Origin: a virus
Lineage: Duplodnaviria > Heunggongvirae > Uroviricota > Caudoviricetes
Reading direction: 5' to 3' (one strand)
Virus record (IMG/VR): IMGVR_UViG_3300027777_000022
DNA: 64,000 nt
The translations under genes and the position numbers were made by a program. Shown piece after piece: positions 18,116 through 59,923 of the stretch. The notes beneath the pieces were generated by a model. That model worked only from the letters and a program-made list of their open reading frames with translations. It did no database searches and was not told the DNA's origin. Numbering within the stretch: position 1 is the first letter of the stretch; every line of letters starts with the position of its first letter.

Positions 18116-18116
18116 T

Positions 18117-24820: not shown

Positions 24821-24849
24821 ATTGTAACATCAAATGGATTACGTGTCAA
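24821..24849 (-). promoter_or_regulatory. sigma70-like promoter TTGACA-N17-TACAAT
   Basis: Minus strand: -35 TTGACA (plus 24844-24849), 17-nt spacer, -10 TACAAT (plus 24821-24826). Confidence 0.5.
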
Positions 24850-42552: not shown

Positions 42553-43249
42553 GGGGATCCAATATATTGTTTTCTATACAGTATTGTAACACAAATTCAG
42601 CCCAAAAGCAATGAGCTTCTTTACCAAAATGCCAAGAGCCATCCTTTACTGGTTCAAAACGATCTCTCAGGATTTCATTGTAAGTGAATTCCAAATACGG
42701 TGCTATGTACGAATTGCCCCAGTCCAGTTGCTGAGCAACACGATCAAACCGGTTATTACCGTTGAAGAACACATGCGGTATCTTCATCCCAGTCAGTTCT
42801 TGATGCAGTTGCCAAATCTCTCGGTGCCAATATTGTTGACACTGATTCCAATTCACATTGACCACAAACTGCCGGTATCGATCTTGAAATTTGTTAGGAA
42901 CCCAATCCAGTCCTGAACTGCCCACCTGCAAGTATTCACCGTTGTGCAACCATTCTTCTCGCTCCCAGGTACTCCATTGTATGATTGCCACTGCCGATTC
43001 CCACGGACGCAGACTCCGCATCCAATCACGTGTGGTACGTAGGATTCTATAATTTGAAGCAGCACTTTCAGCATCACAGATTAGTTCAACCCCCAACCGG
43101 TTAGCCAACTGTTGACCCCAGCTCGCAGCTAGGTTAGCAGGATGCGGTCTGCGTCCCAGTTCTGGATAGCCATCATCTTCGGCAAATGCAGCAGGTGATA
43201 CTGCTTCTGCACCTGCTGTGTGGCTATCGCCATTTACATATAGGATCAC
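42533..43249 (-). CDS. SGNH/GDSL hydrolase
   Basis: N-terminus MILYVNGDSHTAGAE (GDSH block I). Confidence 0.5.
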   Translation of the reverse strand: MILYVNGDSHTAGAEAVSPAAFAEDDGYPELGRRPHPANLAASWGQQLANRLGVELICDAESAASNYRILRTTRDWMRSLRPWESAVAIIQWSTWEREEWLHNGEYLQVGSSGLDWVPNKFQDRYRQFVVNVNWNQCQQYWHREIWQLHQELTGMKIPHVFFNGNNRFDRVAQQLDWGNSYIAPYLEFTYNEILRDRFEPVKDGSWHFGKEAHCFWAEFVLQYCIENNILDPHEISPD

Positions 43250-44835: not shown

Positions 44836-45957
44836 TTAGAACAAGTCAACTTTTTCCCACGGCAAATGGGCTTTACCAAAATGTCCGTAGTTTGTGGTAT
44901 CGCTGTAGATTGGGCGGAACAACTCAAAGCGATCAATAATTCCTTTGGGAGTGAGATCTACCATGTTTGGAATACTCAAAGTCAGATGCCTTGCCAGAGC
45001 TCGATCCTCACATTCCACATAGAAACTCATGGGTTGTGATAGTCCGATTGCATAACTGATTTGCACAGTGGCCCACTTGGCTTGACCACTGGCCACAATG
45101 TTCTTGGCAAGATATCGCATCATGTATGCAGCACTACGATCAACTTTGGTTGGATCCTTGCCTGAAAAAGCACCGCCTCCGTGTGGACTGTATCCACCAT
45201 ATGTGTCCACAATAATCTTGCGCCCAGTTAGGCCAGTGTCACCGTCGGGGCCACCAATCACAAAACGTCCGGTTGGGTTGATATGGAATTCTGTATGCTC
45301 ATCCACATACTGTGCAGGCAAAATATCACGAATAAGAGTTTCCACATTGGCTCGTAATGCATCAGTGGTAATACAGTCACGATGTTGAGTAGAGCACACC
45401 ACCTTGGAGATTCTTACAGGAACACCATCGTTGTCGTACTCAAATGTGACCTGACTCTTGGCATCCGGGCCTAACCAATCAAGTTCTGACTGCTTGCGAC
45501 GATACGACAACATCTCTACAATTTTGTGACTCCAGTAGATGGCACTGGGCATGAACGTATCAGTTTCGTTGCAGGCATATCCAAACATTAGACCTTGATC
45601 ACCTGCACCAAACGTGTCAGTACCTAGTGCGATATCTGCTGATTGTCCATGCAGTAGATTGGTAATCTCAACTGTGCGCCAGTCAAATCCTGATTGTTCG
45701 TAACCAATATTTTTAATTGTTTTACGAATTGTTGAATCAACTTCTTCATCATGCAGCACACCCTTGTACTCGCCTGCAACTACCACACGATTGGTAGTGA
45801 CTAGAGTTTCGCATGCACATCGTAACGCAGTATCTTGCGTGGACATAACCAAGTCCAACACAGCATCACTGATAGCATCTGCTACCTTATCTGGGTGCCC
45901 TTCAGACACGCTTTCGCTTGTAAATAAATAACTCATTTTTTCCTTTTTAAATTCCAA
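44836..45957 (-). CDS. metK: S-adenosylmethionine synthetase
   Basis: FTSESVSEGHPDKVADAISDAVLD, GDQGLMFGYA, FINPTGRFVIGGP, GRKIIVDTYGG and HGGGAFSGKDP all match MetK. Confidence 0.93.
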   Translation of the reverse strand: MEFKKEKMSYLFTSESVSEGHPDKVADAISDAVLDLVMSTQDTALRCACETLVTTNRVVVAGEYKGVLHDEEVDSTIRKTIKNIGYEQSGFDWRTVEITNLLHGQSADIALGTDTFGAGDQGLMFGYACNETDTFMPSAIYWSHKIVEMLSYRRKQSELDWLGPDAKSQVTFEYDNDGVPVRISKVVCSTQHRDCITTDALRANVETLIRDILPAQYVDEHTEFHINPTGRFVIGGPDGDTGLTGRKIIVDTYGGYSPHGGGAFSGKDPTKVDRSAAYMMRYLAKNIVASGQAKWATVQISYAIGLSQPMSFYVECEDRALARHLTLSIPNMVDLTPKGIIDRFELFRPIYSDTTNYGHFGKAHLPWEKVDLF

Positions 45958-46208
45958 ATCAAAAACTCATGTTTATCAACCCAATAAGTTTTTATCACCT
46001 GATCTCCTGGCCCATAAATGTACTGATCTGCAACATATGCACGTTTACCCCATAATGGTTTTCCGCTTAAGAAACATTTTTGTGGGAGCCAACATAATTT
46101 TAATTCCCACCCCCGGGCTCTATTCAATCCCCAGTCTTGATATTCTTGGGTTTGTTGTTCACGTGCCCAATCTTGCTTAACCCATTCGTGTTGTGTCATG
46201 TGCCCCAC
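45933..46208 (-). CDS. hypothetical protein (91 aa)
   Basis: ORF between queE and metK. Confidence 0.35.
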   Translation of the reverse strand: MGHMTQHEWVKQDWAREQQTQEYQDWGLNRARGWELKLCWLPQKCFLSGKPLWGKRAYVADQYIYGPGDQVIKTYWVDKHEFLIWNLKRKK

Positions 46209-47059
46209 TCGTTCTTGAACAACGGAACCTGTAGTCGATCACTGTAGCGCCAGCCTTGATTCATGGCCATAATAGCCACAGCCTTGTTGTTCAACGAGTA
46301 AACACTTTCCACTCCGCCAATGGGCATCAAGTACACATGGCCCTTGAATCCAGCTGCACGATACTCTGCTACTGCACGTTGAGCGTCTGCAAAATCTTCT
46401 TGGGTAGCGATTACCAGCTTCAAGTATGTGTGGCCAACATCTTGGTATTGACACACGATCTCTGGACGTATGGCATCCTCCCACTTTTCACCTGAGCAAG
46501 GCAATTTAGCACTCACACTAAATGTCAATGCTTCGCGCCCACGTGACTTGTTACCTAGGGACCAGTTCAGCAGGTACTGCCTAAACTCCGTACTGAGTTC
46601 TTGGGTACCATTGGTCTCAAATGTGATCTCTCTAACACCTGCCATCTTGGGATCATCCAACAAGCTGGGATAAGCACGTTGCCAACCCAGCAATGGTTCA
46701 CCACCTGTGATCACAAGATGTTCATCGCGCCATTCTTTAAACGGCAGCATGGCCGCAATATCCTCTGCCAGTTCAGCATTTTTACGCATGGGACTTAGAT
46801 TTTTGAAATCAGGATGCCAGCTGGCGTAGCTGTCACATCCTGTACTAACCAATGGCAGTTCTTCGTATTTTGTAAATGGATGCATGGCATTCATAACTGC
46901 CACTTCATCTGCTTCTTTGCTGAGTTCACCACGCGGCATGCCAAAGCCTGCGCATTTGAAGTTGCATCCAAACACACGCAAGAACACGCTGGGTACCCCC
47001 ATATAACGTCCTTCACCTTGGATACTGTAAAACAGTTCCGCTACTTTAAGTTTACTCAT
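46196..47059 (-). CDS. queE: 7-carboxy-7-deazaguanine synthase (QueE)-like radical SAM enzyme
   Basis: AELFYSIQGEGRYMGVPSVFLRVFGCNFKC plus ITGGEP. Start set to MSKLKV to remove an 88-nt overlap with the upstream gene. Confidence 0.7.
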   Translation of the reverse strand: MSKLKVAELFYSIQGEGRYMGVPSVFLRVFGCNFKCAGFGMPRGELSKEADEVAVMNAMHPFTKYEELPLVSTGCDSYASWHPDFKNLSPMRKNAELAEDIAAMLPFKEWRDEHLVITGGEPLLGWQRAYPSLLDDPKMAGVREITFETNGTQELSTEFRQYLLNWSLGNKSRGREALTFSVSAKLPCSGEKWEDAIRPEIVCQYQDVGHTYLKLVIATQEDFADAQRAVAEYRAAGFKGHVYLMPIGGVESVYSLNNKAVAIMAMNQGWRYSDRLQVPLFKNEWGT

Positions 47060-47847
47060 ATTTTTTGTGCTTTGATTAACAGATGCCAACCTAGGTATTC
47101 TTTCACTGCTGCTCGCATGTCTTCGGGCATGGCAGCAAACCAAGGCTCCAATTCGTACTCGCCTTGCCGGTACTTAGATACATTATACATGAAATTATGA
47201 TCTTGCCTAATTCTTAGCACTCGAAACTTTGCCTCCAATAGATCATAAATTTCTTCTTTGCTGTAGGCTTTGGCATAGGGACAATCTGATTGTGCTTCAA
47301 ATTGATCTAGTCCTTTTTGGATCATGGCATATTTCCAAGAGTTCTTTGCATATACCAACATGCGGAATTCTCCGTCGGGCACCAGGGCAGCATGAATATT
47401 ATTCAAGCATGCAGTCATGTCTGGATAGTGATGCAGTACCCCGCAACTGTACACTAGATCAAATTTGCCCAGGCTGGACACTGCTGCACTATCTGCACCA
47501 TCCATCACATGAAACTCTCCAGTTAGTCCAAACAAGTCAAATCTTTGTTGACTCATAGCTACAGATTCTGCTGAAAGATCAATTCCCACATAGTCTGCAC
47601 CATGTCGGGCAAATTCCACAGCATCGGATCCAATACCAGATCCTATTTCCAACACACGTTTGCCGCGCCACAAGTGAAAACTAGCAAAATCACGTAGATG
47701 AGGTTCTACAAAGAATCTACGTTCGGTGACTTCATTCCAATATTGTTCTGTGCCCGGATCGCTCAGACTGTGTTTGACATTACAAGGTTGTACATTCCAG
47801 TAATGTTTGATTCGATCTATAAGTTCAGTGGTCAAGTGTAGTGGCAC
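47056..47847 (-). CDS. class I SAM-dependent methyltransferase
   Basis: VLEIGSGIGSDAVEFARHGADYVGIDLS (motif I, GxGxG). Confidence 0.7.
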   Translation of the reverse strand: MPLHLTTELIDRIKHYWNVQPCNVKHSLSDPGTEQYWNEVTERRFFVEPHLRDFASFHLWRGKRVLEIGSGIGSDAVEFARHGADYVGIDLSAESVAMSQQRFDLFGLTGEFHVMDGADSAAVSSLGKFDLVYSCGVLHHYPDMTACLNNIHAALVPDGEFRMLVYAKNSWKYAMIQKGLDQFEAQSDCPYAKAYSKEEIYDLLEAKFRVLRIRQDHNFMYNVSKYRQGEYELEPWFAAMPEDMRAAVKEYLGWHLLIKAQKI

Positions 47848-48667
47848 TCCAGGATTTCATTAGACCTTTGGTGTCTAGTTTCAACATCTTATGCCAGATG
47901 TCAATTTTGTTTTCTATTCCCAATTTAAAATGTTCAAGATCGTAGCCCAATTCTGCTAGATAGTTGGCAATTTTTATTGCTTCTTGCATGCGGCGGGTAC
48001 GCCATGTATGATAATTAAAATCTCTAGGATGATTAGGATTACCTTCCAGCATGGGACGATTCTTAAACACATCGTCACCATTCTTACCTGTGAGATCAAA
48101 ACGTTCATGTTCAATCATTACAGGTATGGTAATCACAATATCCAGCATCCAGCCAATCTGACTGGCCCATGCATCGTTGATCTGATGTGGCGATATGTTA
48201 CCTGTAAGCTCTACCCATTTGCGTGGCAAGATAGGAAAGATAGCATACGGATGGCCATGATTGGTTTCGGCTCGTAACAATGCAAATCGATCATTGTGCT
48301 CGCGTATGACATCGTCCCAGCCCTGAGTGGTCATCACAGCATCATCGTTCCAAAAGAAAATCCACTTTCCGGTGCTGTGATTGGCCAGCTCATTCAGGTA
48401 TTCATTCAGTCGAAGATACCCTAATCTTTTGAATTGCATGGCACTATAGGTCACACCCTTTGCATCAAGATATGGAGCAATCACATCCACAAAGTATTTT
48501 ATAGTATCTGTGTCATCATCATCAAATGCTATCAATACTTCAATGCGTTCGGGGCAAGTGGCAGTACCAATCAGAGTGTGCAAGCATTGCTCCATTGGGA
48601 TTGGTCTTGCACGTACTGGTAATAGTACACTGATATCTATGTTGGGATTTTGTGCAGGCAAACTCAT
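47825..48667 (-). CDS. GT-A fold (family 2-like) glycosyltransferase, paralog A
   Basis: ISVLLPVRAR N-terminus and WIFFWNDDAVM (DxD); shares FFWNDDAVM and HPY-IFPI-P-W blocks with 50586..51416. Confidence 0.5.
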   Translation of the reverse strand: MSLPAQNPNIDISVLLPVRARPIPMEQCLHTLIGTATCPERIEVLIAFDDDDTDTIKYFVDVIAPYLDAKGVTYSAMQFKRLGYLRLNEYLNELANHSTGKWIFFWNDDAVMTTQGWDDVIREHNDRFALLRAETNHGHPYAIFPILPRKWVELTGNISPHQINDAWASQIGWMLDIVITIPVMIEHERFDLTGKNGDDVFKNRPMLEGNPNHPRDFNYHTWRTRRMQEAIKIANYLAELGYDLEHFKLGIENKIDIWHKMLKLDTKGLMKSWSATTLDH

Positions 48668-50589
48668 TGTGTTATACGGGTAATATTAGTTTTTCCAAAG
48701 TTGCGCTTTCTACTAAAGTACATGTTTTCTAAAAAACGGTCTTCGCTCATTTCGGAATCTTCAACAGTATCAAATTGGTAAACTGTGGCGGTTTTTAGCG
48801 TGGCATTGTCTTGTATGTAACCAAGGAAGTCATATTCAAATGTCTGTGTGATTGGCAACGATTTTAAATCTCTATAGTCAATTACATAATTTCTTTGAAA
48901 CTGTAGCAATTGATGTTTCACTTGCAAATCAATATTATAATGACTCTGCAAAAATTTGTCAAGCGAATCAAACACATAATTGATCATTTGATCTTTGACC
49001 ATGTACAGAGTGGTCCTGTGCATGAGGTTCCACCCGAACACTTCAATGTTACCAATACGAGGGTGGTCAATACGTCCTTTGGTCATCCAGTTTTGGAAAT
49101 AACTGCGTGTTTCTAAAAACTGTAATTTAAACCAAGGATCTTTTTGTACCCATGCATAGAGGTCTTCATAGAACTTGCTGTAATCAATGTTTTGGTGCTT
49201 GGCTAGATATCGTGCAATGTAGGTTGATAGACCGTTGATATGGAAAGTTTGTATAAAACTACTCCATACCAAGGTATCCAACATGGTCTCTCGTGGTATG
49301 GTCTTTGTGCTTACTACCACATCAATGCTTTCGTTGAGATCCACATCACCGTAACTGCCGCTCATGTAATCGTATACAGGTACACTTTCCAACTTGTACA
49401 GCTTCTTCTGCAAGAGATTCATCTCTGCATTTTCCAGCAATTGACATTGTAGAATGTTGATCCCGCCATGATTGCCTGCTCGGAAGATTTTCCAAAAGGC
49501 TTCTTTCCATGATTCTACTGTTTCCCCCGGTAAGCCTAGAATCAATTCTGTGTATACAGGAATATTGTTCCGGTCGCACAGTGCAAAGATTTCATCAATC
49601 TTGTGTTGATCAAGATTACGACGTTTGATATTCTCTAACACATCGTTGTCCATGCTTTGCACACTGACCGTGAGCCCTTGACCAAAGTTAGGTGACTCAT
49701 CAATCAGTTTCTTAACAATGCCCACAACTTCGTTCTTTTGATTCTTGGCCCAGGTCATGGAAAAACTTTCCAGTTTACCCCAACGCTTTTGCACTTCGAT
49801 CAGTTTGTCCACAATCATGTTGTCACGCTCTACAAACATACCAAAGTTGGCATCGGTAATGGTGACAAAGCCACAATGTTCACCAATCCAATCCAATTCA
49901 TCGTATACACGTTGCAGCTCAAACTTCTTGACTTTGTTGTATGTGAGACTGCCCCAGTCGCAGAATGTGCATTGATAAGGGCATCCGCGATTGGTTTCCA
50001 GTGTGGCATTCCATATTACTTCGGGGCTCTCAGACATGATACGATCAAATACGCCTGTGAGATATGGACTAGGCACTTCGTCTAGATTGTTGATACGTTT
50101 GGGATCTCCTGTGTCAACTAGTCCTGTGCCTGTATTGATCAAAAGTCCAGGAATGTGTGTGTAGTCAGTGCCGTAATCTTCAAGAATATGTCGAAACGTC
50201 ACTTCGCCCTCCATCTTGATCACCAAATCCATAAACGGTTCTTTTTCAAACAATTCAGGATCTTCAATAGCCGGTTCGGGCCCACCGAATATTATAGTAC
50301 ATTTGGGGTTGAGCGTCTTTACTAACTTTGCTAGTTTATAATTGTAGCGATGATTCCATACGTAAGTTGAAAATGCTACCACGTTACTGGTGCTTAGTTT
50401 CAGCGCCTGTTCTTCAATGGGTTCCCTGCGCCATACCAAGTGATCTACTTCCCATTCTGCATTGACTTTTTTTGAAGCCAGTGCATAACTCAGTATAACT
50501 CCTGCAGAATACGGCAAGTAGTAGGCATTGAATTCTTTAGGACCTTGTTGAAAGTTAGGTTGTACAAAGCTGATTTTCTTTTTTGTCAT
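48664..50589 (-). CDS. B12-binding domain / radical SAM protein (641 aa)
   Basis: NRGCPYQCTFCDW (CxxxCxxC) with an N-terminal B12-binding-like region. Confidence 0.7.
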   Translation of the reverse strand: MTKKKISFVQPNFQQGPKEFNAYYLPYSAGVILSYALASKKVNAEWEVDHLVWRREPIEEQALKLSTSNVVAFSTYVWNHRYNYKLAKLVKTLNPKCTIIFGGPEPAIEDPELFEKEPFMDLVIKMEGEVTFRHILEDYGTDYTHIPGLLINTGTGLVDTGDPKRINNLDEVPSPYLTGVFDRIMSESPEVIWNATLETNRGCPYQCTFCDWGSLTYNKVKKFELQRVYDELDWIGEHCGFVTITDANFGMFVERDNMIVDKLIEVQKRWGKLESFSMTWAKNQKNEVVGIVKKLIDESPNFGQGLTVSVQSMDNDVLENIKRRNLDQHKIDEIFALCDRNNIPVYTELILGLPGETVESWKEAFWKIFRAGNHGGINILQCQLLENAEMNLLQKKLYKLESVPVYDYMSGSYGDVDLNESIDVVVSTKTIPRETMLDTLVWSSFIQTFHINGLSTYIARYLAKHQNIDYSKFYEDLYAWVQKDPWFKLQFLETRSYFQNWMTKGRIDHPRIGNIEVFGWNLMHRTTLYMVKDQMINYVFDSLDKFLQSHYNIDLQVKHQLLQFQRNYVIDYRDLKSLPITQTFEYDFLGYIQDNATLKTATVYQFDTVEDSEMSEDRFLENMYFSRKRNFGKTNITRITQ

Positions 50590-51416
50590 CCAGTATTTAC
50601 TCGTCTAGCTGTGGCATCAACTTGATTATTGGTGTCGTTGGCCCGCATCTTCTCCCACGGATCCTGCTGCCCTTGCCATGCATTAACAAAAAATGTTAAG
50701 TCAAGCCCTTGATCCTGCATCCATGTGGCCAGTTTAGCAGTATCATTGGTACGTATTTTGACCATGTCAGGATGATTTAGATCTCCTGGTTGACTGGGAT
50801 CACCTTCCATGATACAACGCTGCTGATAGGTTGCGTCGTTGTTTGCACCAGTGATGTCATATCGATTGTGATCACAATGCACATCAATGCGTTCAAAGAT
50901 ATCTAGGTAGTATGCAATCTGACTCACATACGCATCATTGCTACTGTGTTGACTGATATGCCCTAGTATTTCAAACCATTGGCGCGGCACGATGGGAAAG
51001 ATACTGTACGGATGATCATTGTGTGTATGCACACTCAGCAGTTTGAATTCACCTATGCGCTTGCGTATACATGCATCCCACCCAGGAGTTTTCATCACAG
51101 CATCATCGTTCCAGAAGAACAACCAGGAGCCTTGACTGTGTTCGGCTAGTCCATTTACATATTGGTGCAAGTTGTTGTAACCCAGTGGCTCAAACACCAC
51201 GATCTTGTGATTGACTTTGTTTTGTTCAATCCACGGGCATACGTTGTTCAGCATGTTCTCCATGCCTACCACGTCATCGTTATCTACACCAAACAATACT
51301 TCAATTGAAGCAAAATCCTCAGCCAGGGTGCAGAGACTTTGTATACTGCTCATTAGTGCCTCTGCCCGCCCGCGAGTAGGTAGCAATATACTGATATCAA
51401 TTTTGCTATTCATCAC
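50586..51416 (-). CDS. GT-A fold (family 2-like) glycosyltransferase, paralog B
   Basis: ISILLPTRGR and LFFWNDDAVM; paralog of 47825..48667. Confidence 0.5.
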   Translation of the reverse strand: MMNSKIDISILLPTRGRAEALMSSIQSLCTLAEDFASIEVLFGVDNDDVVGMENMLNNVCPWIEQNKVNHKIVVFEPLGYNNLHQYVNGLAEHSQGSWLFFWNDDAVMKTPGWDACIRKRIGEFKLLSVHTHNDHPYSIFPIVPRQWFEILGHISQHSSNDAYVSQIAYYLDIFERIDVHCDHNRYDITGANNDATYQQRCIMEGDPSQPGDLNHPDMVKIRTNDTAKLATWMQDQGLDLTFFVNAWQGQQDPWEKMRANDTNNQVDATARRVNTG

Positions 51417-51892
51417 TCAAACTCATTATCCTCACGATGACCTTGACGGCCTGCCATGTTTGAATCTGTTTCACGAACTTCTACTCTGGTACACCACACA
51501 CGTCGGGCTTCTTCCGCACCGCAGTTGGGCAAGAAGATTGTGTTAACATATTCGTACAAAAAGTCAGCAATGCCTTCACATCCGGTCTTTTCTACTTCTG
51601 TTATCTTGGCCAATTTGAGTCTGCCAAGTTCCAACAAGTGTTCACGCATGGGATCATCCTGTGCTACTAAAAAAGTGTGATCAAACCAATCTTCTAACAG
51701 GCCCTTGAGTGGTTTTAATCCACCAAAGTCTGTAACCCAATTACGGGCATCTAATGTATCTGCTTCAAATTCAAAGTGAAAACTCATTGCGTAACCGTGT
51801 ATGAGATTGCAGTGACTGTCAGCTCGCCATTGACGATACGCTACAGGCCCAATTTGCTTGTAGGTTTTTGTTGAAAAATATTTCTTTGCCAT
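51413..51892 (-). CDS. queD: 6-carboxy-5,6,7,8-tetrahydropterin synthase (QueD/PTPS family)
   Basis: SHCNLIHGYAMSFHFE parallels QueD HKCGRLHGHSFMVRLE; also NWVTDFGGLK and FDHTFLVAQDD. Confidence 0.75.
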   Translation of the reverse strand: MAKKYFSTKTYKQIGPVAYRQWRADSHCNLIHGYAMSFHFEFEADTLDARNWVTDFGGLKPLKGLLEDWFDHTFLVAQDDPMREHLLELGRLKLAKITEVEKTGCEGIADFLYEYVNTIFLPNCGAEEARRVWCTRVEVRETDSNMAGRQGHREDNEFE

Positions 51893-51971
51893 GATTTTCT
51901 CCTATGTTAGATTATAGCATAGGCGGCGGAGTTTGTATAGCGGGACGATGCCGATAGGCCGCTGTGAATAT

Positions 51972-52376
51972 TTATTCCGGTAATTGATAGCCAGTGGCTT
52001 TGTAGTCAGCTTGGCCAAATACAACTCCTCGCACACCGCCCACAGGATTAGCAGTGTCGCCCATGCGACGTGGGATAAAATGCACATGCGGATACATCAC
52101 TGTTTGCCCGGCAGTAGGGCCCATATTGATACCAATGTTGAATCCTTCACAGTGCCCTTGTTCCACCATGCGACGACCATGCAGCATGGCTGATTCCATA
52201 CAGTCAATGATCACAGCATCGGTATTGTAGTTGGGCACAAACAACAAATGACCACGTGTGACAGGATACCGATCTTCAAACACAGTGATGTGAAAATCAC
52301 TCAGCTCTTGTACCAGTTGATCCCACGGCGCCACACCAGCGGCTTGTGCATCGTCAAGTGTTTTGTAATCTATCAT
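51972..52376 (-). CDS. HIT-family hydrolase-like protein
   Basis: GQTVMYPHVHFIPRR resembles the HIT histidine-triad segment, with one His position substituted. Confidence 0.45.
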   Translation of the reverse strand: MIDYKTLDDAQAAGVAPWDQLVQELSDFHITVFEDRYPVTRGHLLFVPNYNTDAVIIDCMESAMLHGRRMVEQGHCEGFNIGINMGPTAGQTVMYPHVHFIPRRMGDTANPVGGVRGVVFGQADYKATGYQLPE

Positions 52377-53164
52377 CGTGGTGCAAATTCTTGTTGTAGT
52401 TTGATATTGTCAAAGAACTCTTTCTTGGTTCCTGAATCGTCTTTAAATGCACCTTTGAGTACAGTGGTCTGTGTGAGACTTGAATGTGCCATGATACCTC
52501 GATTGGTGCAGCAACCATGTTCGGCTTGTATATAAACTGCTACATTGTCACTGTCAGTAACCTTCATGATCTCTCTTGCAATATCGTTGCACAGTTCCTC
52601 CTGTAGCGTACCGCGGCGGGCACACCATTGAGCAATACGAGTATACTTAGACAGGCCAATAAGTTTGTTAGCAGCCAAAATACCAATATAAGCAACACCG
52701 CTGACAGGTTGATGATGGTGCGAACACATTGAACGTAGCTCGCTACGGATCACAAGCATGCCTTCGTAACGATCGTCTGAATCATTTGGAAAAGCTGTTG
52801 CGTCTGGTGCTGGTTCATATCTGCCTTGCATGATTTCGTTGTAGTACATCTTGGCCAGGCGTCGTGCTGTGCCTTTAGAGTTGGGATCTGTTTCGCGATC
52901 AATTAGTAGTGCATCTAGAACTTTTTCAAATGCTGCTGTGGCTTCATCAATCAAATCTTCTTTATCAGGGCCAACCAGATAGTCACTGATGTTGTCACCG
53001 GCCCAGAATCTTTTGCCATCAGCTCGCATACGATCACGTATTACTGTGCTTAGATATTGACCTTGTGCTGCATCTTCTTTTTTGATATACAACGTTTGTC
53101 CTTCCAGTGGAACAAATTCTTCAGTGTGTGGATGTATCACCGGATCCGGTTTAAATTCTCGCAT
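52373..53164 (-). CDS. folE: GTP cyclohydrolase I
   Basis: LRSMCSHHHQPV (C-E/S-H-H), LIGLSKYTRIAQ and NVAVYIQAEHGCCTNRG align with FolE. Confidence 0.88.
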   Translation of the reverse strand: MREFKPDPVIHPHTEEFVPLEGQTLYIKKEDAAQGQYLSTVIRDRMRADGKRFWAGDNISDYLVGPDKEDLIDEATAAFEKVLDALLIDRETDPNSKGTARRLAKMYYNEIMQGRYEPAPDATAFPNDSDDRYEGMLVIRSELRSMCSHHHQPVSGVAYIGILAANKLIGLSKYTRIAQWCARRGTLQEELCNDIAREIMKVTDSDNVAVYIQAEHGCCTNRGIMAHSSLTQTTVLKGAFKDDSGTKKEFFDNIKLQQEFAPR

Positions 53165-53165
53165 G

Positions 53166-53777
53166 TTATTCCTTAATGGTTATGTTTCGCAAATCTGGAT
53201 ACTGTACAAACTTGGGTGATTCTGGAGCTGTCGCGTACTGTACCAACAACTCTAGTCCACGTTCAGCATCTTCAATTGAGGGCTTGTAGTGATATCCCAA
53301 CTGGAATGTTTTTTGTGTTTCCCAGGGTGAGATATTTAGGTCGCGACCATCATATCGTTGTTTTATCATCACTTCGTAGGCTTGCTTGTTATCTAACAGT
53401 ATAGCACCACCGTGACCTATTTGTAAAGGCTTTGTGTGTCCAAAACTCAAGCACTGCATCTGTCCTGTACGATACATGTCAGGTTCTAATCTTCTAGCAC
53501 TATCCCAAATTCTGGTGTATATGAAATTGTATTCACCAGTCCATGTTTGTTCAGTATCATCCAGATACACATAGTCAATGCCTAACTTGTGCATGGTCAT
53601 GGGTACACTTAGATAAGTGTAAGGGGTCATCTTGAGACCCTTTACTCGCTCGTATCGCAAACACATTTCTATGGCATGTGTACAGCAATCAGTCATGATT
53701 GCAGCAGGAGCACCAGTAAACCGGGCCAATGCCCGTTCAAATTCAAGGATTTTTTCGAACATACCAGGCCCATGCAT
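53166..53777 (-). CDS. short DegT/DnrJ/EryC1-like (PLP aminotransferase-like) protein or fragment
   Basis: FEKILEFERALARFTGAPAAIMTDCCTHAIEMCL and KPLQIGHGGAIL resemble DegT-family N-terminal and Lys regions, but the protein is only 203 aa. Confidence 0.3.
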   Translation of the reverse strand: MHGPGMFEKILEFERALARFTGAPAAIMTDCCTHAIEMCLRYERVKGLKMTPYTYLSVPMTMHKLGIDYVYLDDTEQTWTGEYNFIYTRIWDSARRLEPDMYRTGQMQCLSFGHTKPLQIGHGGAILLDNKQAYEVMIKQRYDGRDLNISPWETQKTFQLGYHYKPSIEDAERGLELLVQYATAPESPKFVQYPDLRNITIKE

Positions 53778-54699
53778 GTTGAATCATATCGTCCAGAGTG
53801 TACTGACGCCAGTTGGGCATCAACTTACTAAACTTTTCTGCATTGGCAGTGAGCACAGCAGGATCACCAGTACGACGTTCTTCTACGCCAATATACGGCA
53901 TTTTGCCAACAACATCTCTTGCACGACTCATTACTTGCTTGACGCTGAATCCCCGATTAGATCCTAGATTGTAAACACCGGATGGCACAGCAGCATCCAA
54001 CGCACACACATGAGCATGAGCAATATCTTCCACATGTACATAATCACGCACACAACTTCCGTCTGGTGTGTCGTAATTGTCGCCGTATACTCTGAATTGC
54101 CCGTCATCCCTTGTGGCTTCCAAGATTCTAGCAATCACGTGTGTAGCACCGGGTTCCTGCCCATGTCGACCTAACCGGTCGGCTCCGCAGGCATTGAAGT
54201 AACGAAATGCCACATAGTCAAGACGATATGCATGATGATAGCTGGCTAACACTTGTTCGATCATGCGTTTGCTTTCACCATACGGGCTCATGGGCTCGCA
54301 TGGATCAACTTCTGAACATGGAAACAGACTTGTTCCTCCGTACACTGATGCACTTGAACTAAAGATAACTCTGGTCTTAGGCAAGGCATTACAAACCAAA
54401 TCCAACAAGTGGATGGTCTTGATCACATTGTTGTGATAGTAATCCGAAGGATATTTAACGCTGGGGCCTACCAAACTGGTTCCAGCACAATGAATAATAG
54501 CATTGGGTTGTAGCTGTATCAATTTTGTTTTGGCTTGATCGCTATCAAAGTCCGCCTGAACAAATCGACTAAACGCATCCGTCAAGAGAGGCGGGCAAGG
54601 CCTACGATCAATACCAATCACCCGGTGTCCGACATCAAACAAAGCCAATGCCACTTGGCCGCCGATGTATCCTGCTGCACCAGTTACTACCACATCCAT
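53743..54699 (-). CDS. NAD-dependent sugar epimerase/dehydratase (GalE-like)
   Basis: VVVTGAAGYIGGQV Rossmann motif and YGESK (YxxxK). Confidence 0.75.
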   Translation of the reverse strand: MDVVVTGAAGYIGGQVALALFDVGHRVIGIDRRPCPPLLTDAFSRFVQADFDSDQAKTKLIQLQPNAIIHCAGTSLVGPSVKYPSDYYHNNVIKTIHLLDLVCNALPKTRVIFSSSASVYGGTSLFPCSEVDPCEPMSPYGESKRMIEQVLASYHHAYRLDYVAFRYFNACGADRLGRHGQEPGATHVIARILEATRDDGQFRVYGDNYDTPDGSCVRDYVHVEDIAHAHVCALDAAVPSGVYNLGSNRGFSVKQVMSRARDVVGKMPYIGVEERRTGDPAVLTANAEKFSKLMPNWRQYTLDDMIQHAWAWYVRKNP

Positions 54700-55875
54700 T
54701 TAGAATTTTCCTTCTCGTGTGTGTTTTCTATAGTCTACACTCATACGCAGCATATCTTCTCCATTGCCCTGCATGATATCTAGCACACGATCGATTGTGC
54801 CGTTGTTGCGATCGCTAATCTGTCCCTGGCGTGGATGTTGCCAAGTCAGCAGTATTTCCAATTTGTTCAGTGCATCTTCTATGCTCCAGGGAACATAAAG
54901 CCTAGAATGGTCATTACTAAAAGTCTCAGGGAAACTACGATAAGCAGGGTATAAAACATTACACCCAAGACTATCTGCTTCTGAGACCGTGTTAGAAACC
55001 CAATCTTGAAGTGCGCAATTGAACACAACACGGCTATCGTTTACAATGTTGTAGTAATCGTTCTTTTCCAAATCTTCGTAGATTACCAATTTGCCTGCTG
55101 CTTGTAGATCACGTGTGCGTTGCATATAGCTTTCACTATTGCTTTTTAGTTTGCCACCACTGCATACTGCAAACTCCACAGGCAGACTGGGATGACGAGT
55201 GTGCCATGCTTCAATCAAGTCCATGTAGAAGTCTGGTTGCTTCTCTTGATCCCACCGTGCTGAAAACACCACACGTGATTTGCGTTCAGACCATGGCTTG
55301 ATACTAGACACACGTGATTGCACTTCTGCCTTGCCAAATGCCAATCCTGAAATATTATAGATCGGAGCCTGCCAACCTGCAATCTTCATGTGTGCTACCA
55401 TTTCTTCGTTTGTGGCCAGCACGCCATCTACAAAGGAGTCAACCATCTTTTCATAGTGACCCATCCAAGTAGACATACCCCAAACGTGTACAAAATCATC
55501 AGGGTCAATAGACTGAGCCAAACATCTGACAAAAATGCGAGGGCGCAAGTGTACTGGAATTTGATCCAAGATATACGGGAGGCTCTCAATTCCGGGTTGA
55601 AACATGTCTTCAAAGTAGACCACATCTTCATTGTTAATTTCTCCTGCTTTCATCATACGAACAAGATTCATCAGTTGACTCATGCCAAAGTATGTGCGAC
55701 CATGCGCATCTAATACTTGGCCTGTCACAATTGCTTGGTCGTTGCTGAGTGTTTCACCGGGCACTATGACATAGTCAATCTTGCGACGATCAAAAACCGC
55801 AGTATTCCAGTGTTGTAACTGTAGAGTGTAACGTGCTTTATAGGGCTCTAGGCCCATGTAAAACAGTTTTCTCAT
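54700..55875 (-). CDS. GT-B fold (GT4-like) glycosyltransferase candidate
   Basis: KSRVVFSARWDQEKQPDFYMDLIEAW and ...SEADSLGCNVLYP resemble the GT4 C-terminal donor-binding region. Confidence 0.35.
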   Translation of the reverse strand: MRKLFYMGLEPYKARYTLQLQHWNTAVFDRRKIDYVIVPGETLSNDQAIVTGQVLDAHGRTYFGMSQLMNLVRMMKAGEINNEDVVYFEDMFQPGIESLPYILDQIPVHLRPRIFVRCLAQSIDPDDFVHVWGMSTWMGHYEKMVDSFVDGVLATNEEMVAHMKIAGWQAPIYNISGLAFGKAEVQSRVSSIKPWSERKSRVVFSARWDQEKQPDFYMDLIEAWHTRHPSLPVEFAVCSGGKLKSNSESYMQRTRDLQAAGKLVIYEDLEKNDYYNIVNDSRVVFNCALQDWVSNTVSEADSLGCNVLYPAYRSFPETFSNDHSRLYVPWSIEDALNKLEILLTWQHPRQGQISDRNNGTIDRVLDIMQGNGEDMLRMSVDYRKHTREGKF

Positions 55876-56096
55876 GTGCGATATCCTGCCAAGCGACGAG
55901 TATCCTCATCCCACATGTTCTTGGCTGGCTTGCCTTGAGTGTGTTTGTTGAATTGTTGGAATGCATAACTGCGGAAGTTATACAGGTCCGACTCGTTGAA
56001 CTTGTATCCGTAGTCCACGCAGAACTCACGATACTGCTCCAGGTCCTCCAGAGTTTGTTCAGCACGGGGATTGTGTTTGATGATGACTTTGGCCAT
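55872..56096 (-). CDS. hypothetical protein (74 aa)
   Basis: ORF in the co-directional operon. Confidence 0.35.
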   Translation of the reverse strand: MAKVIIKHNPRAEQTLEDLEQYREFCVDYGYKFNESDLYNFRSYAFQQFNKHTQGKPAKNMWDEDTRRLAGYRT

Positions 56097-56107: not shown

Positions 56108-56563
56108 TTAGAGTTTGATAGATTGATAAGGTTGCAGGACATTGTACACTATCACAGCACCATTTTCACCGTCTTCGCTCACGTTGATAATGATGCTGCG
56201 ATCTGGATAACGAGCAGCAATTTGCTCATATAGATCGTCACTGATCATTTCACAACTCTTGTGATCGAGTTCCAGTGTGCCATTGGCATAGAGATTTTCT
56301 AGCCAACGCTTGAACTGAATGAACTCAATGTCACGGTCGTTGTGAAATACTTGCACAGTTACTTCAAAGTGAAACATGTGTCGATGCGGGCTTGCTAGGA
56401 AACTCACATCATATTCATCGCCTGTGGCCAGCGCAGGGTCTGTAGCTGCTGCTGGATAGCAATGGATGCCTTCCTTTTGAAATCGCACAAAGATGGTTCT
56501 AAAAGCCTTATCTTTGATGCGTGTTCGGGTTTCTTCAAGTGCTTGTTGTTGTTGCTGTATCAT
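56108..56563 (-). CDS. hypothetical protein (151 aa)
   Basis: ORF in the DpdA-proximal block. Confidence 0.4.
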   Translation of the reverse strand: MIQQQQQALEETRTRIKDKAFRTIFVRFQKEGIHCYPAAATDPALATGDEYDVSFLASPHRHMFHFEVTVQVFHNDRDIEFIQFKRWLENLYANGTLELDHKSCEMISDDLYEQIAARYPDRSIIINVSEDGENGAVIVYNVLQPYQSIKL

Positions 56564-56569
56564 AAAATA

Positions 56570-57130
56570 TTATTCCAAAGTAAAAAGATTAGAAAAAGTA
56601 GATCGAGACATGGCCTCAAGTTTCTTCATGGCACCATCAGTAAATCTAAACTGATATGACCTAGGTCCGTCGGCCATGCGTTCAAAAAACCCATAGTAGC
56701 CACCCGAGACATAATTACGTTGATCACCGTCGATGATTTTTTGTCTAGCTACTTCGTAACATTTTTCAATTTTTTCTTGTATATGTGGTGCTGAAAAATC
56801 GTATACTTCAGCCGAGACTATGATTTGATCTCTGGACTTGATTCGATATTGTTGTTGTAATTTGTGATAGATCGTGGATTTTTTATACGGGGTTGATTTA
56901 ATATTTCTAGCAGACATTGTACCAACTGTGTGTGCCGAAGTAGCGTCGAGATCTCTTGTTTTGACTTCAAAATCACATTGTGGTATATCTGCCCCTGGGC
57001 CATTGGATAAAGGAACTCCTCTCTTGATCAGTTTCTTTTCGCCGTCTCGTCCCGACGCACCGCCAAAGGTTGGTGCAATAGATTCTCCCACAATGTTCAC
57101 TTTGAGATGAGTGATCTTGGGTTTCTTCAT
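56570..57130 (-). CDS. hypothetical protein (186 aa)
   Basis: ORF in the DpdA-proximal block. Confidence 0.4.
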   Translation of the reverse strand: MKKPKITHLKVNIVGESIAPTFGGASGRDGEKKLIKRGVPLSNGPGADIPQCDFEVKTRDLDATSAHTVGTMSARNIKSTPYKKSTIYHKLQQQYRIKSRDQIIVSAEVYDFSAPHIQEKIEKCYEVARQKIIDGDQRNYVSGGYYGFFERMADGPRSYQFRFTDGAMKKLEAMSRSTFSNLFTLE

Positions 57131-57663: not shown

Positions 57664-59204
57664 ATTTGATCCTGTTCAAGTTGTTGTAATGCTTGTGAGT
57701 TTAACAGATCTTCAGGGTCAGAGTCAACCTCTACCACATCAAAATGAACATTAAACATGGTGTTGGCGTTCACAGTCTTTTTACCTTTAAACCCACGGGT
57801 TCCCGGAATATCCATCCAGTAGTTACGATAGTGGTGAATAAGATTTTCTGACTCTTCACGGTCGGATGTGGCAAAGATTGCCTCTACAATGTCCTCAAAC
57901 TTTGCATGATCACCGTTTTGATTCCACAACATTTGAGGCCACGAACCCGAATCAAATGTTCTATTGGCACGTTGCACTGCTTCTAAATGGGTCCACACAT
58001 TGTGCCCCATTAGTAGTGCATACGAAAACGAATCCCAAGAGGTCTTGCCTTCTTTACCAATCTTGTTTAGATCGCCGGGTTTGTAGATGCATATATCCTT
58101 CATGGTCAAAAGCTGACTGAGTGGACTTTCATCAAAGTGATCAACCAAGCCATCTGCTACCACAGCCTGGCCGTAGGGTCTTGTGTCTGTGCTGTATTTC
58201 TTGTTATCAGCAATAGGACTCATTCTATAGCACCACTTGCCATCATGTGGCAAGTCAATCTGATGATATACTTGACCATTGGCAGTGGCCAGGAATGGAC
58301 TGGCACAATCAAACGATATGGTAAAGTCAGGGTTAACATATTTCCTAACAGCACGTTGGATCACTGTAAGCAACACAGCCCATTCCAGCTTTGATGTACC
58401 CAAGAAGTGCATCCAATCGTGCTTGCCCTGTTGCAGCAAATTGTCATGCCGTAGCGCCACAAGACGTTTGAGCACAAGATGTACATCACACATGTTCTGT
58501 CCACCCATTGACCAGCCATCAAAGTGTGTGTTAGGGTACTTGGCAGGATCGCAAAAGTCCTTCATTTCTTGATACCATTGTTCTGCTGAGGTGTGATTGT
58601 CACCTTGCAACACGTTCAAGAACTTGGCACCACCGTTTTCTTTGCCCCGGCGGTTGGCCATGAAGTATTCATTGTTGAACTTGGTAGCATCCACAGCTTC
58701 TTGCAGCGTGTTGATCTGGCAGGCTCGTGATGCCTTCTTGTCATGGATTACCCAGGTAGGAATATCCAAGATCATGCCATAATCACTCACGCTGTCAAGC
58801 CAAGCAAGAACAGCAGCACGTTTCTTTTGTGCTTTGGCACAACCTGAATTGGCTTTCCAATCACCTTCCCACAAGCCCTTGGCAATCTGGAATCCTCCTG
58901 AGTCGCCCAGCATAAACGTTCCGGGTTCACGATTGCGAACCATATCTTCGGACCAGTCCTGCTTGGAGAGATCTAGGTTGGCATGCCCACCTGAATACAA
59001 ACTCCAGCGATATGGAAACAATGCTTTTTGACTATTAAGCCAGTTCATCATTTCCATGTCAGTGAGCCCAGCTGGCATGCGGGCAGGATCTACATATGGA
59101 CCATTGCGTTGCTTGCCTACAAAGGTAGCATAAAATCCAGAGATTGCTGGCAGAAACACAGCATAGTCATTCTGCTTGGCTGTGAGATTGTCTTGGTTGA
59201 TCAC
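57660..59204 (-). CDS. dpdA: TGT-superfamily transglycosylase, DpdA-like (7-deazaguanine DNA transglycosylase candidate)
   Basis: FMLGDSGGFQIA (TGT DSGGFQ catalytic-Asp motif), NVLQGDNHTSAEQW (TGT QGG region) and HFLGTS (LMGVG-like). No CxCxxC...H zinc site as in tRNA TGTs. Same operon as folE-queD-queE. Confidence 0.55.
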   Translation of the reverse strand: MINQDNLTAKQNDYAVFLPAISGFYATFVGKQRNGPYVDPARMPAGLTDMEMMNWLNSQKALFPYRWSLYSGGHANLDLSKQDWSEDMVRNREPGTFMLGDSGGFQIAKGLWEGDWKANSGCAKAQKKRAAVLAWLDSVSDYGMILDIPTWVIHDKKASRACQINTLQEAVDATKFNNEYFMANRRGKENGGAKFLNVLQGDNHTSAEQWYQEMKDFCDPAKYPNTHFDGWSMGGQNMCDVHLVLKRLVALRHDNLLQQGKHDWMHFLGTSKLEWAVLLTVIQRAVRKYVNPDFTISFDCASPFLATANGQVYHQIDLPHDGKWCYRMSPIADNKKYSTDTRPYGQAVVADGLVDHFDESPLSQLLTMKDICIYKPGDLNKIGKEGKTSWDSFSYALLMGHNVWTHLEAVQRANRTFDSGSWPQMLWNQNGDHAKFEDIVEAIFATSDREESENLIHHYRNYWMDIPGTRGFKGKKTVNANTMFNVHFDVVEVDSDPEDLLNSQALQQLEQDQI

Positions 59205-59923
59205 TTGGTTTGTGCAGGTAAAATGTAGTTGTAAACAGCCATACCAGAGTCAACAGTGATCTGCATACAGCCGTCATCGCTAATTTTCATGGTCTTGTCG
59301 CCAACCAAGCCCAAGATACTGATCACTTGTGCAACAGGCCATGACCAAGTGCGCTTGAGATTGCCAGTTACATCATGTTGAAACACAAAGTTACCGCTGT
59401 GTGTGGAATGATCTCCAAAGAAAAACTTTAGATGGTTATCTTCAACTTTGATTTGAAAGTTGACTTCTTCTAAGTTAGCTTGCCACTGCATTTTCAAACG
59501 TTGGATAGCTGCTACAGTAGGTTCAACTGTGACATGCCACGGCACACCTTTGAATTTGATATTCTGAAGTTTGACATTCACAACTTCACTGGCCATAAAC
59601 CTATAGTTGTTACGGAAGTCACCTGCTTTGTTTTCAAAGTTAATGCCATCTGGTTCACCGTTTGTTTTGTGTGTGATAGTCAACTTGGCATCTTCTTTGT
59701 ACTCTTGCAAGTTGATCAAGGTCTTGATCTTGCCAAGATTGGGCATACCAAAGGTACCAATAAAATCAGCAACAGGGTTGGCAAATTGTGCTTCCACAAT
59801 AACCGAATTGTCGGCAGCTAGCCCGTTTACTGAGGTGGCAGCATCGGTGCCAGTAATTTTGATCAAGTCGATACAGCCAAGATCAAATGTGTGTTGTACT
59901 AGGTCTAAGAGATTGTCTTTCAT
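59201..59923 (-). CDS. hypothetical protein; possible gp45-like sliding clamp
   Basis: About 240 aa, adjacent to the DNA polymerase; weak resemblance to the T4 gp45 N-terminal region. Confidence 0.25.
   Translation of the reverse strand: MKDNLLDLVQHTFDLGCIDLIKITGTDAATSVNGLAADNSVIVEAQFANPVADFIGTFGMPNLGKIKTLINLQEYKEDAKLTITHKTNGEPDGINFENKAGDFRNNYRFMASEVVNVKLQNIKFKGVPWHVTVEPTVAAIQRLKMQWQANLEEVNFQIKVEDNHLKFFFGDHSTHSGNFVFQHDVTGNLKRTWSWPVAQVISILGLVGDKTMKISDDGCMQITVDSGMAVYNYILPAQTK

Follow-up and report, generated by a model that had tools for sequence, protein, structure and literature searches.

The stretch of DNA analysed here, called the window below, comprises 64,000 nucleotides of the IMG/VR record IMGVR_UViG_3300027777_000022 and comes from an uncultivated freshwater jumbo phage. 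On its minus strand, at 47056-55875, lies a tailoring module in which glycosyltransferases (GTs) of the GT-A and GT-B types, an epimerase, a methyltransferase and a cobalamin (B12)-dependent radical S-adenosylmethionine (SAM) enzyme are interleaved with genes of 7-deazaguanine synthesis (Table 1). Every gene from 40 kb to the window end is carried by the minus strand, and the junctions between neighbouring genes are mostly 4-nt overlaps. Scanning for promoters and terminators produced no more matches than chance would give and so sets no operon boundaries. Domain labels were taken from Pfam, PHROGs and NCBIfam. All genes named in the original prediction (the methyltransferase, the GT-As, the B12 radical SAM enzyme, QueD, the HIT protein, FolE, the DegT-like protein, GalE, the GT-B and QueE) were found in their places on the minus strand, and the two GT-As that it described as paralogues flanking the 641-residue B12 enzyme share 38% identity. 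It also placed the module inside a deazaguanine base-exchange operon. This placement agrees with the presence of FolE, QueD and QueE and of two genes that it did not list, a DpdL homologue and a DpdA-like gene, with which the module reaches further upstream than 55875.

Table 1 Genes of the tailoring module and its surroundings, listed from the window end downwards (aa, amino acids; ORF, open reading frame; E, expectation value)
Feature	Coordinates	Strand	Evidence or remark
Family B DNA polymerase (PolB)	61107-63773	minus	
u396, 396 aa, directly after PolB	59920-61110	minus	no Pfam match
u240	59201-59923	minus	function unassigned
Predicted divergent tRNA-guanine transglycosylase (TGT)-superfamily, DpdA-like base-exchange enzyme, 514 aa	57660-59204	minus	TGT motifs, hhalign
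u178, conserved, 178 aa	57127-57663	minus	homologue of ACP17 gp122 (BLASTP 30% identity, E 5e-12)
Basic protein, 186 aa, isoelectric point (pI) 9.5	56570-57130	minus	variably present in relatives
DpdL homologue, 151 aa, QueD-like T-fold	56108-56563	minus	phrog_17812 E 3.6e-36
u74, conserved 74-aa ORF between DpdL and GT-B	55872-56096	minus	in most related loci, 38-96% identity
GT-B (GT4-like) glycosyltransferase, 391 aa	54700-55875	minus	core partner of DpdA and DpdL
GalE-type uridine diphosphate (UDP)-hexose 4-epimerase	53743-54699	minus	Pfam Epimerase E 3e-53
Mini DegT-like pyridoxal phosphate (PLP) protein, 203 aa	53166-53777	minus	Pfam DegT E 9e-14, N-terminal part only
FolE, GTP cyclohydrolase I	52373-53164	minus	Pfam E 8e-40; NCBIfam FolE models E 1e-39
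HIT-family nucleotide hydrolase or transferase, 134 aa	51972-52376	minus	Pfam HIT E 9e-8
QueD (6-carboxytetrahydropterin synthase family)	51413-51892	minus	Pfam PTPS E 5e-15; NCBIfam QueD 1e-8
GT-A glycosyltransferase, paralogue 2	50586-51416	minus	phrog_14945 E 1e-11
Cobalamin-dependent radical SAM methylase, TokK/CysS/KedN5 group, 641 aa	48664-50589	minus	
GT-A glycosyltransferase, paralogue 1	47825-48667	minus	
Class I SAM methyltransferase	47056-47847	minus	Methyltransf_12/23/25/11 E 1e-15 to 1e-17; phrog_22502 E 1e-53
QueE-like radical SAM enzyme (7-carboxy-7-deazaguanine synthase)	46196-47143	minus	phrog_2076 E 5e-49
Small ORF	45933-46208	minus	
MetK, SAM synthetase	44836-45957	minus	three Pfam S-AdoMet synthetase domains, E 1e-32 to 1e-56

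The operon holds a full set of FolE, QueD, QueE, DpdL and a base-exchange enzyme. FolE, QueD and QueE, the three enzymes required for 7-carboxy-7-deazaguanine, are all encoded in the window. QueD carries the motif CNLIHGY, with the Cx3HG spacing of the QueD type. The best NCBIfam matches of QueE are five QueE models with E values of ~1e-12, all far under their cut-offs, and the protein is 46% identical to QueE of Synechococcus phage BUCT-ZZ01 from residue 28 onward; translation probably starts at Met 29 of the listed ORF (MSKLKV...). The DpdL homologue belongs to the same PHROG (phrog_17812) as DpdL of Cellulophaga phage phiST, is 60% identical to gp125 of Acidovorax phage ACP17, and has LASPHRHMF in place of CxxxHGH, matching the published DpdL signature LxxxHRHxF (Cui et al. 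2023, PMC10516641). DpdL is the proposed 7-carboxy-7-deazaguanine decarboxylase, with 7-deazaguanine as its product, and the full gene set, without QueC, accompanies 7-deazaguanine (dDG) in phiST DNA (PMC10516641). QueC was not found among the Pfam-scanned genes of the window.

The candidate base-exchange enzyme is a 514-residue protein whose gene lies four genes upstream of the GT-B gene. It contains the motifs GDSGGFQ, LDIP, NVLQG, GWxMGG, HFLGTS and SFDCASPF in the order, and with approximately the spacing, of the TGT barrel. In an alignment of 76 homologues (26-42% identity), residues D101, S102, G104, P149, H266 and D299 are invariant and sit within the TGT-type motifs, and D101 and D299 are the equivalents of the catalytic Asp residues. 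With this 76-sequence alignment as the query, hhalign matched a trio of phage DpdA proteins from ACP17, BUCT-ZZ01 and Xanthomonas phage BUDD (the BUDD protein is annotated as queuine tRNA-ribosyltransferase) with a probability of 97.5% and an E value of 6e-12, and Escherichia coli Tgt with a probability of 93% and an E value of 3.5e-7. The 514-residue protein had zero matches in Pfam (including TGT and DUF6610), in PHROGs (including phrog_20335, the PHROG of phiST DpdA3) and in phmmer and hmmsearch searches of the PDB, and tblastn with phiST DpdA3 and with DpdA of the BUCT/ACP17/BUDD type gave no match in the window or in 156 related loci. Sequence searches place it in none of the described DpdA subfamilies (DpdA1-4 and bDpdA), and only motif inspection and profile-profile comparison tie it to the DpdA and TGT families. 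On these grounds, the protein is predicted to be a TGT-superfamily transglycosylase of the kind that a DpdA-type system requires, with DNA as its predicted substrate. The neighbouring u240 was considered as a DpdA3 candidate and rejected (BLASTP E 0.28).

Homologues of the GT-B are found in three unrelated cultured phages, namely ACP17 and BUDD (22-27% identity) and BUCT-ZZ01 (67.5%). In all three, the GT-B gene adjoins DpdA and DpdL within a FolE/QueD/QueE cluster. The co-occurrence with dpdA in other phages that the original prediction proposed to look for is therefore seen for the GT-B family. No other annotated sugar genes were present in the stretches of ACP17 and BUDD that were examined; BUCT-ZZ01 also has a 447-residue protein, and a homologue of this protein in the clade of the window phage is a weak GT-B match. 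The small protein u178 is likewise shared, as its homologue gp122 precedes DpdA in ACP17 and u178 itself is in the backbone of most related loci. Expression of ACP17 dpdA and dpdL in E. coli yielded no dDG, and it was proposed that further enzymes are possibly needed (Cui et al. 2023, PMC10516641). As the GT-B gene sits between dpdA and dpdL in ACP17, its product is an obvious candidate for the missing enzyme. The linkage of the DpdA/GT-B/DpdL trio suggests a role of the GT-B in the deazaguanine pathway, for which it is our strongest argument. We note separately that the GT-B is more conserved across the clade (78-83% identity) than the DNA polymerase (59-64%), and that its identity to the copy in a T4-like cyanophage is 67.5%, against 32-49% for the other genes shared with that phage.

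In a megablast search of 50,697 phage records, the module had no nucleotide match; the phage is known only from metagenomes. Judged by PolB, the nearest isolates are jumbo phages of the Atu_ph07/Phosso type (43-49%). Proteins of the window recover hundreds of IMG/VR and metagenome contigs of up to 697 kb, largely from freshwater. The related loci have a constant backbone of PolB, u396, u240, the DpdA-like gene, u178, DpdL, u74, GT-B, a cassette, QueE, u91, u137 and FEN. A census of the cassette was made in 35 dereplicated loci, each anchored by the GT-B. QueE is present in all 35, an epimerase of the short-chain dehydrogenase/reductase (SDR) family in 34, FolE in 25 and QueD in 24; GT-A and HIT genes are each found in 16, the mini-DegT in 15, the B12 enzyme in 14 and the methyltransferase in 13. 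The GalE-family SDR follows the GT-B in 34 of the 35 cassettes, and the minimal cassette consists of GT-B, SDR and QueE only. One cassette type has a cytidylyltransferase-like protein, which occupies the HIT slot, together with a SPASM radical-SAM enzyme, a second GT-B-like protein and another SDR, and another type adds a CmcI-type methyltransferase. Further members are a UDP-glucose dehydrogenase homologue, a purine phosphoribosyltransferase and a small MazG, as well as proteins that by eye look like a YhhQ-type transporter, a PP-loop ATPase and an aminotransferase. Most of the families that can be labelled belong to deazapurine/purine metabolism or to sugar tailoring; a BI-1-like membrane protein, a UvdE-like protein and a large number of small ORFs lie outside both themes. 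We read the region as the hypervariable sugar/alkyl cassette of a deazaguanine nucleic-acid modification island.

The GT-As are bound to the same context. Homologues with 46-93% identity occur in 78 distinct loci, all of which carry QueD, QueE or FolE, and down to 46% identity none was found outside deazaguanine cassettes. The GT-A gene usually stands right after QueD and before the methyltransferase gene, with QueD at most 2.5 kb upstream in 49 of 63 cases. A GT-B scan of genome contigs found only phage-like contigs binned into metagenome-assembled genomes (MAGs) and no bacterial context. The MAG bins that hold contigs of the lineage are assigned to Haliscomenobacter (twice), Chitinophagales, Phycisphaerae, Rickettsiales and Syntrophomonadaceae; those of Bacteroidota may point to the host, or the binning may be wrong. 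We also observed that the purine phosphoribosyltransferase homologue recurs in deazaguanine cassettes, including those of BUCT-ZZ01 (12864-13325) and of four related loci (L164, L167, L206 and L210). This enzyme may salvage the released guanine or convert a deazapurine base to the nucleotide. Another recurrent family is DUF6071, with paralogues at 42533-43249 and 19640-20272 of the window and one between the GT-B and the epimerase in a related locus (L155).

The GT-B has the two-Rossmann fold, the C-terminal EX7E motif and the basic phosphate-binding residues expected of its class, and the GT-As have a Rossmann-like fold with an acidic DxD-type motif for metal and nucleotide-sugar binding. The marks of T4-type DNA glucosylation, kinship to the T4 alpha- and beta-glucosyltransferases (AGT/BGT) and an acceptor pathway to hydroxymethyl-pyrimidines, were not found. 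The predicted model of GT-A paralogue 1 is confident, with a mean predicted local distance difference test score (pLDDT) of 92, and resembles GT2 enzymes that act on glycans, teichoic acids and polyprenol-linked acceptors. The original prediction had raised DNA-binding clefts like that of T4 beta-glucosyltransferase for the GT-A paralogues; the GT models match ordinary glycan GTs and not DNA GTs. Paralogue 2 is missing from some related cassettes. The epimerase has the GalE motifs TGAAGYIG and YGESK and matches UDP-glucose 4-epimerases in the PDB at an E value of 1e-58. The DegT-like ORF had been called a fragment, but it is a conserved ORF of ~200 residues that is present in 15 of the 35 dereplicated cassettes and is 70% identical in a 697-kb contig. 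In an alignment with PDB 8vr3, its PLP-lysine motif, SFGHTK, falls on the PLP-lysine region, and the protein keeps this motif and an upstream Asp-x-Ala although, with 203 residues compared with ~370 in canonical members, it is ~170 residues short. The HIT protein matches the NCBIfam models of HinT (1e-10) and of ATP adenylyltransferase (3e-6).

The B12 enzyme contains the Pfam domains B12-binding (2.7e-9) and Radical_SAM (2.1e-10) and the cluster motif CPYQCTFC. It matches TokK (E 5e-83), CysS (1.6e-46) and the NCBIfam KedN5 family (3.9e-72), and its N-terminal B12 domain, CxxxCxxC motif and homology are those of a class B cobalamin-dependent radical SAM methylase. The match to the KedN5 model reaches 243 bits, below the cut-off of 700 bits, and covers model positions 5-385 of 624; by sequence, the enzyme is a relative of KedN5 and not an equivalog. 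Its homologues are nearly absent from phage isolates, with 2 weak matches in the 50,697 records. Enzymes of the TokK/CysS/KedN5 group add successive methyl groups to carbon, and this includes the extension of O-methyl groups, which for CysS and KedN5 are placed by class I methyltransferases. This chemistry fits the pairing with a class I methyltransferase in the window. The same gene order is seen in ~55 of the 70 IMG/VR contigs that a search with the B12 enzyme retrieved (55-97% protein identity), and the B12 gene lies inside the cassette in ~55 of the 70 loci and elsewhere in the rest. The methyltransferase gene directly follows the GT-A gene in 62 of 75 loci, and in variant cassettes the class I methyltransferase is replaced by a sugar 3-C-methyltransferase of the TcaB9/mycarose type (PDB E 6e-52).

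These observations bear on the C-methylated base that the original prediction considered. The gene call itself stands; the case for the base as the target of the B12 enzyme is weakened, because the relatives of the enzyme extend methyl groups on small molecules and copies of it occur outside the cassette. Together with the swap to a sugar C-methyltransferase, this suggests that alkylation probably targets the sugar and not the base. MetK, which adjoins QueE in only some relatives, is predicted to supply SAM to QueE, the B12 methylase and the methyltransferase. As a separate observation, related jumbo phages have an island (1392-19285 of locus L025, IMGVR_UViG_3300027969_000039, and locus L056) with two radical-SAM genes of the B12-binding kind and five others (two with SPASM domains), a UDP-glucose dehydrogenase gene and a gene for an unknown protein of 1353 residues.

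Taken together, the reading that we favour, with a probability of roughly 0.4, is that part of the guanine in the phage DNA is replaced by a deazaguanine that bears methylated sugars. In this mechanism, the DpdA-like enzyme would swap some guanines in the phage DNA for a deazaguanine base. The GT-B would put the first hexose on this base, before or after its insertion, using UDP-galactose or UDP-glucose provided through GalE, and one or two GT-As would lengthen the sugar. The mini-DegT and HIT proteins may help make or activate an unusual donor sugar. The class I methyltransferase would methylate a sugar position, and the B12 enzyme could then add carbon methyls, for example converting a methyl into an ethyl or isopropyl group, with SAM from MetK. 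The product would be a deazaguanine bearing a short methylated glycan at a subset of G positions, and the glycan mark may serve in anti-restriction or anti-defence and diversify quickly between related phages. The original prediction of a glycosylated and/or C-methylated deazaguanine in DNA is thus kept in part: the deazaguanine operon and the GT-B/DpdA/DpdL linkage speak for it, while the case for methylation of the base is weakened and the restriction-site avoidance argues against wholesale replacement of G. We lean towards accepting the broader statement that the sugar module acts on a deazaguanine-derived acceptor, with DNA, tRNA and a free glycoside taken together.

The scarcity of restriction sites that contain G speaks against wholesale replacement. 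The window strongly avoids G-containing palindromes: GTGCAC occurs 0 times against 21.6 expected (z -5.9), AGTACT 1 time against 12.9, CTGCAG 8 times against 22, AGCGCT 0 times against 5.6 and AAGCTT 1 time against 7.6, and TGCA and AGCT are also low. Such avoidance would be pointless if every G were masked, so the modification is probably partial or motif-specific. The avoidance suggests that the phage DNA meets host restriction systems.

Several points weigh against a glycosylated deazaguanine in DNA, and the palindrome avoidance is one of them. The 7-deazaguanine formed via DpdL offers no obvious hydroxyl group to which a sugar could be attached. The GT models are close to ordinary glycan GTs (TarS/TarP, PcManGT, PimA and WaaG-type) rather than to DNA GTs, and the proteins of the module are all acidic (pI 5.0-5.8), which does not support DNA binding, though it does not settle the matter. 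All GT-A loci come from one phage lineage, so their conserved order may be plain inheritance, and with a DNA polymerase in the same gene string, co-transcription alone proves little. Among isolates, the homologue closest to the methyltransferase is in Synechococcus phage Bellamy (43%) and the one closest to the GT-A in Pelagibacter phage HTVC008M (26%); both belong to sugar clusters that have no deazaguanine genes, and these clusters contain UDP-glucose dehydrogenase, carbamoyltransferase, a NadE-like enzyme, epimerases and GTs. Copies of the B12 enzyme with 80-83% identity are found in radical-SAM/UDP-glucose-dehydrogenase islands. A 303-kb contig of the clade has its copy (83% identity) ~88 kb away from its deazaguanine locus, where another B12-binding radical-SAM gene, five more genes of the radical-SAM type and a UDP-glucose dehydrogenase gene form an island with it. 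The window itself has other genes of these kinds, namely a GT9 heptosyltransferase-like gene at 3965-5377, a GT17-like gene at 32859-33770 and a gene for a 483-residue radical SAM enzyme at 6612-8063. Finally, the window carries 34 tRNA genes for most amino acids, in clusters at 5521-31245 on the minus strand. All four queuosine-family (GUN) tRNAs are among them, namely His-GTG, Asn-GTT (twice), Tyr-GTA (twice) and Asp-GTC, with the duplicates of Asn-GTT and Tyr-GTA arranged as adjacent Asn-Tyr pairs. This full set keeps tRNA in play as a target.

Many of these points would be expected if the module made a methylated glycan for an acceptor other than nucleic acid, such as a virion protein or the host lipopolysaccharide or capsule (the alternative given in the original prediction was of this kind), and had come to lie here only because this part of a long early operon is a recombination hot spot. 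The likeness of the models to glycan GTs, the sugar clusters of Bellamy and HTVC008M, the B12 copies away from the deazaguanine locus, the extra genes of the window at 3351-8063 and 32859-33770 (GT, methyltransferase and radical SAM), the DNA polymerase in the operon and a restriction-site avoidance that suggests much unprotected DNA all agree with such an acceptor. We nevertheless consider it rather unlikely. The GT-B stands beside DpdA and DpdL in three other lineages, and in two of these phages, ACP17 and BUDD, the examined stretch has no further annotated sugar gene. Most of the labelled accessories that are not sugar genes are related to purines or deazapurines (purine phosphoribosyltransferase, MazG and the YhhQ-like transporter) and are not random morons. 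Moreover, the GT-A at 46% identity or more never leaves the QueD...QueE cassettes, and the proteins lack both signal peptides and strongly hydrophobic segments.

The deazaguanine could instead be placed at position 34 of the phage tRNAs with GUN anticodons and then glycosylated, in analogy to galactosyl- and mannosyl-queuosine. This is compatible with the restriction-site avoidance in DNA and with the Q-family tRNAs among the 34 of the window, the TGT-like protein is equally far from the known DpdA subfamilies and from tRNA TGTs, and the glycosylated queuosine of tRNA-Tyr and tRNA-Asp is a precedent. We judge it improbable, as the profile comparison favours the phage DpdA group over E. coli Tgt, phages of the ACP17 type carry the same DpdA/GT-B/DpdL trio, and no QueA, QueG or QueH-like gene was seen that would serve the cyclopentenediol, the sugar carrier in both glycosylated queuosines. 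In addition, all phage TGT-family enzymes examined so far act on DNA, and the DpdL-type pathway yields dDG in the DNA of phiST (PMC10516641). An equally slim chance is given to a free deazapurine glycoside, that is, a small molecule like huimycin or dapiramicin or a nucleoside analogue directed against the host or competing phages. Huimycin clusters do join FolE, QueD, QueE and QueC with a PF08241 methyltransferase and a PF13439 (GT4-type) GT that act on the free base, and a purine phosphoribosyltransferase or a YhhQ-like transporter is present in some related cassettes. However, the TGT/DpdA-like enzyme belongs to the fixed core, and the genome-mining rule for secondary-metabolite deazapurine clusters demands its absence; QueC is missing from the Pfam-scanned genes, and no obvious exporter or resistance gene was seen in the window. 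We know of no phage-encoded small-molecule pathway of the deazapurine-glycoside kind.

Comparison with known systems shows a familiar core under a tailoring layer that has no described counterpart. The core is of the known DpdA/DpdL kind, although its transglycosylase is outside the described subfamilies. Like the DpdL systems of phiST, which makes dDG, and ACP17, the window has FolE, QueD and QueE without QueC, a DpdL with LxxxHRHxF and a TGT-superfamily enzyme, as well as a MazG-like gene nearby and an adjoining set of replication genes (PMC10516641). It differs from them in its transglycosylase and in the addition of GT-B, GT-A(s), GalE, mini-DegT, HIT, the methyltransferase and the B12 methylase, none of which is described for these systems in the cited part of that article (PMC10516641); the phiST cluster has no glycosyltransferase.

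The T-even phages, with the alpha- and beta-glucosyltransferases of T4 and arabinosyl-hydroxymethylcytosine, offer another parallel. There too, a non-canonical DNA base is glycosylated from a nucleotide sugar, the sugar type and chain length differ between relatives, and the first transferase has a GT-B fold. The base predicted for the window is a purine analogue installed by base exchange, whereas theirs is a pyrimidine made at the nucleotide level, and they have no counterpart to the GT-As, the B12 radical-SAM methylase or the sugar methylation. To our knowledge, all known DNA sugar decorations sit on hydroxymethyl-pyrimidines. A paper of December 2025 names hydroxymethyl-pyrimidines as the handle for DNA glycosylation, and the deazaguanines listed for DNA bear small C7 groups only (cyano, amido, aminomethyl, methyl-/formyl-aminomethyl, carboxy and H; Cui et al. 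2023, PMC10516641). Our literature searches found no report of a glycosylated deazaguanine in DNA.

Outside phages, the tailoring of deazapurines has precedents. Vertebrate queuosine is galactosylated and mannosylated, and the transferases responsible are one GT-A and one GT-B, with UDP-galactose as one donor. As proposed here, a 7-deazaguanine derivative in nucleic acid bears a hexose; the sugar is, however, on the cyclopentenediol of queuosine, for which no ring-making gene was seen in the window, and the enzymes are eukaryotic and act on tRNA. The B12 enzyme shares its N-terminal B12 domain, CxxxCxxC cluster and paired class I methyltransferase with TokK, ThnK, CysS and KedN5, which belong to bacterial antibiotic pathways, whereas the enzyme of the window is in a phage. 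In huimycin synthesis, a class I methyltransferase and a PF13439 (GT4-type) GT decorate a free 7-deazapurine (PMC7439116; bioRxiv 10.64898/2026.04.15.718813). The huimycin and dapiramicin clusters of Kutzneria and Micromonospora combine deazapurine core genes with a class I methyltransferase and a GT4-type GT, as the window does, and dapiramicin also has an O-methylated sugar. They are bacterial secondary-metabolite clusters with QueC, giving a preQ0 core, and without a nucleic-acid insertion enzyme, whereas the window has DpdL and a DpdA-like gene in a phage operon with replication genes and, as far as the Pfam scan goes, no QueC; its gene set is not that of a huimycin-type cluster.

Other genes of the window are recorded here as side observations. 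At 27147-28235, a 362-residue protein has the PP-loop motif FFSGGTDS and no Pfam match. It resembles, weakly and around the motif, the PP-loop protein of some deazaguanine cassettes and could be a QueC-like or amide-forming enzyme; a PDB search with the cassette PP-loop protein gave no match, and its QueC-like nature is a guess. A consensus stretch of u396, LLRPGGTFLFSFNDCD, resembles the post-II motif of class I methyltransferases, although u396 lacks a Pfam match to support this. A methyltransferase gene at 3351-3962 is grouped with the GT9-like and radical SAM genes at 3351-8063, and a fusion of HAD and nucleotidyltransferase domains is encoded at 18117-19493. The genes at 23886-24833, 36302-37324 and 24853-26160 include two RNA ligase genes (one T4 Rnl1-like, the other with RNA_ligase and a PHA02142 OB domain) and one for a TctA-family tricarboxylate transporter subunit, which is unusual for a phage.

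As a wider extension, which we hold to be doubtful, the large and globally distributed freshwater jumbo lineage, and probably ACP17, BUDD and BUCT-ZZ01 too, would bear a sugar-deazaguanine in place of some guanines of their DNA, with a short glycan that is methylated and further C-alkylated by the B12 enzyme in the sub-lineage of the window and the GT-B as the enzyme missing from the reconstitution. If a glycosylated deazaguanine is indeed present in DNA, no glycosylated purine analogue would have been known in any DNA before it, and DNA hypermodification would gain a new chemical class. Its presence could explain why ACP17 DpdA and DpdL failed in E. coli, and the three cultured phages with the DpdA/GT-B/DpdL trio make the idea directly testable. 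Iterative B12-dependent methylases have hardly been seen in phages, and the one of the window would represent new enzymology if it alkylates a sugar linked to nucleic acid. The 514-residue TGT-like family, which comprises ~950 clusters at 50% identity and is invisible to Pfam, would extend the DpdA superfamily and improve the annotation of many metagenomic phages. A glycosylated deazaguanine would also bring purines, in glycan form, into the arms race between restriction and anti-restriction.

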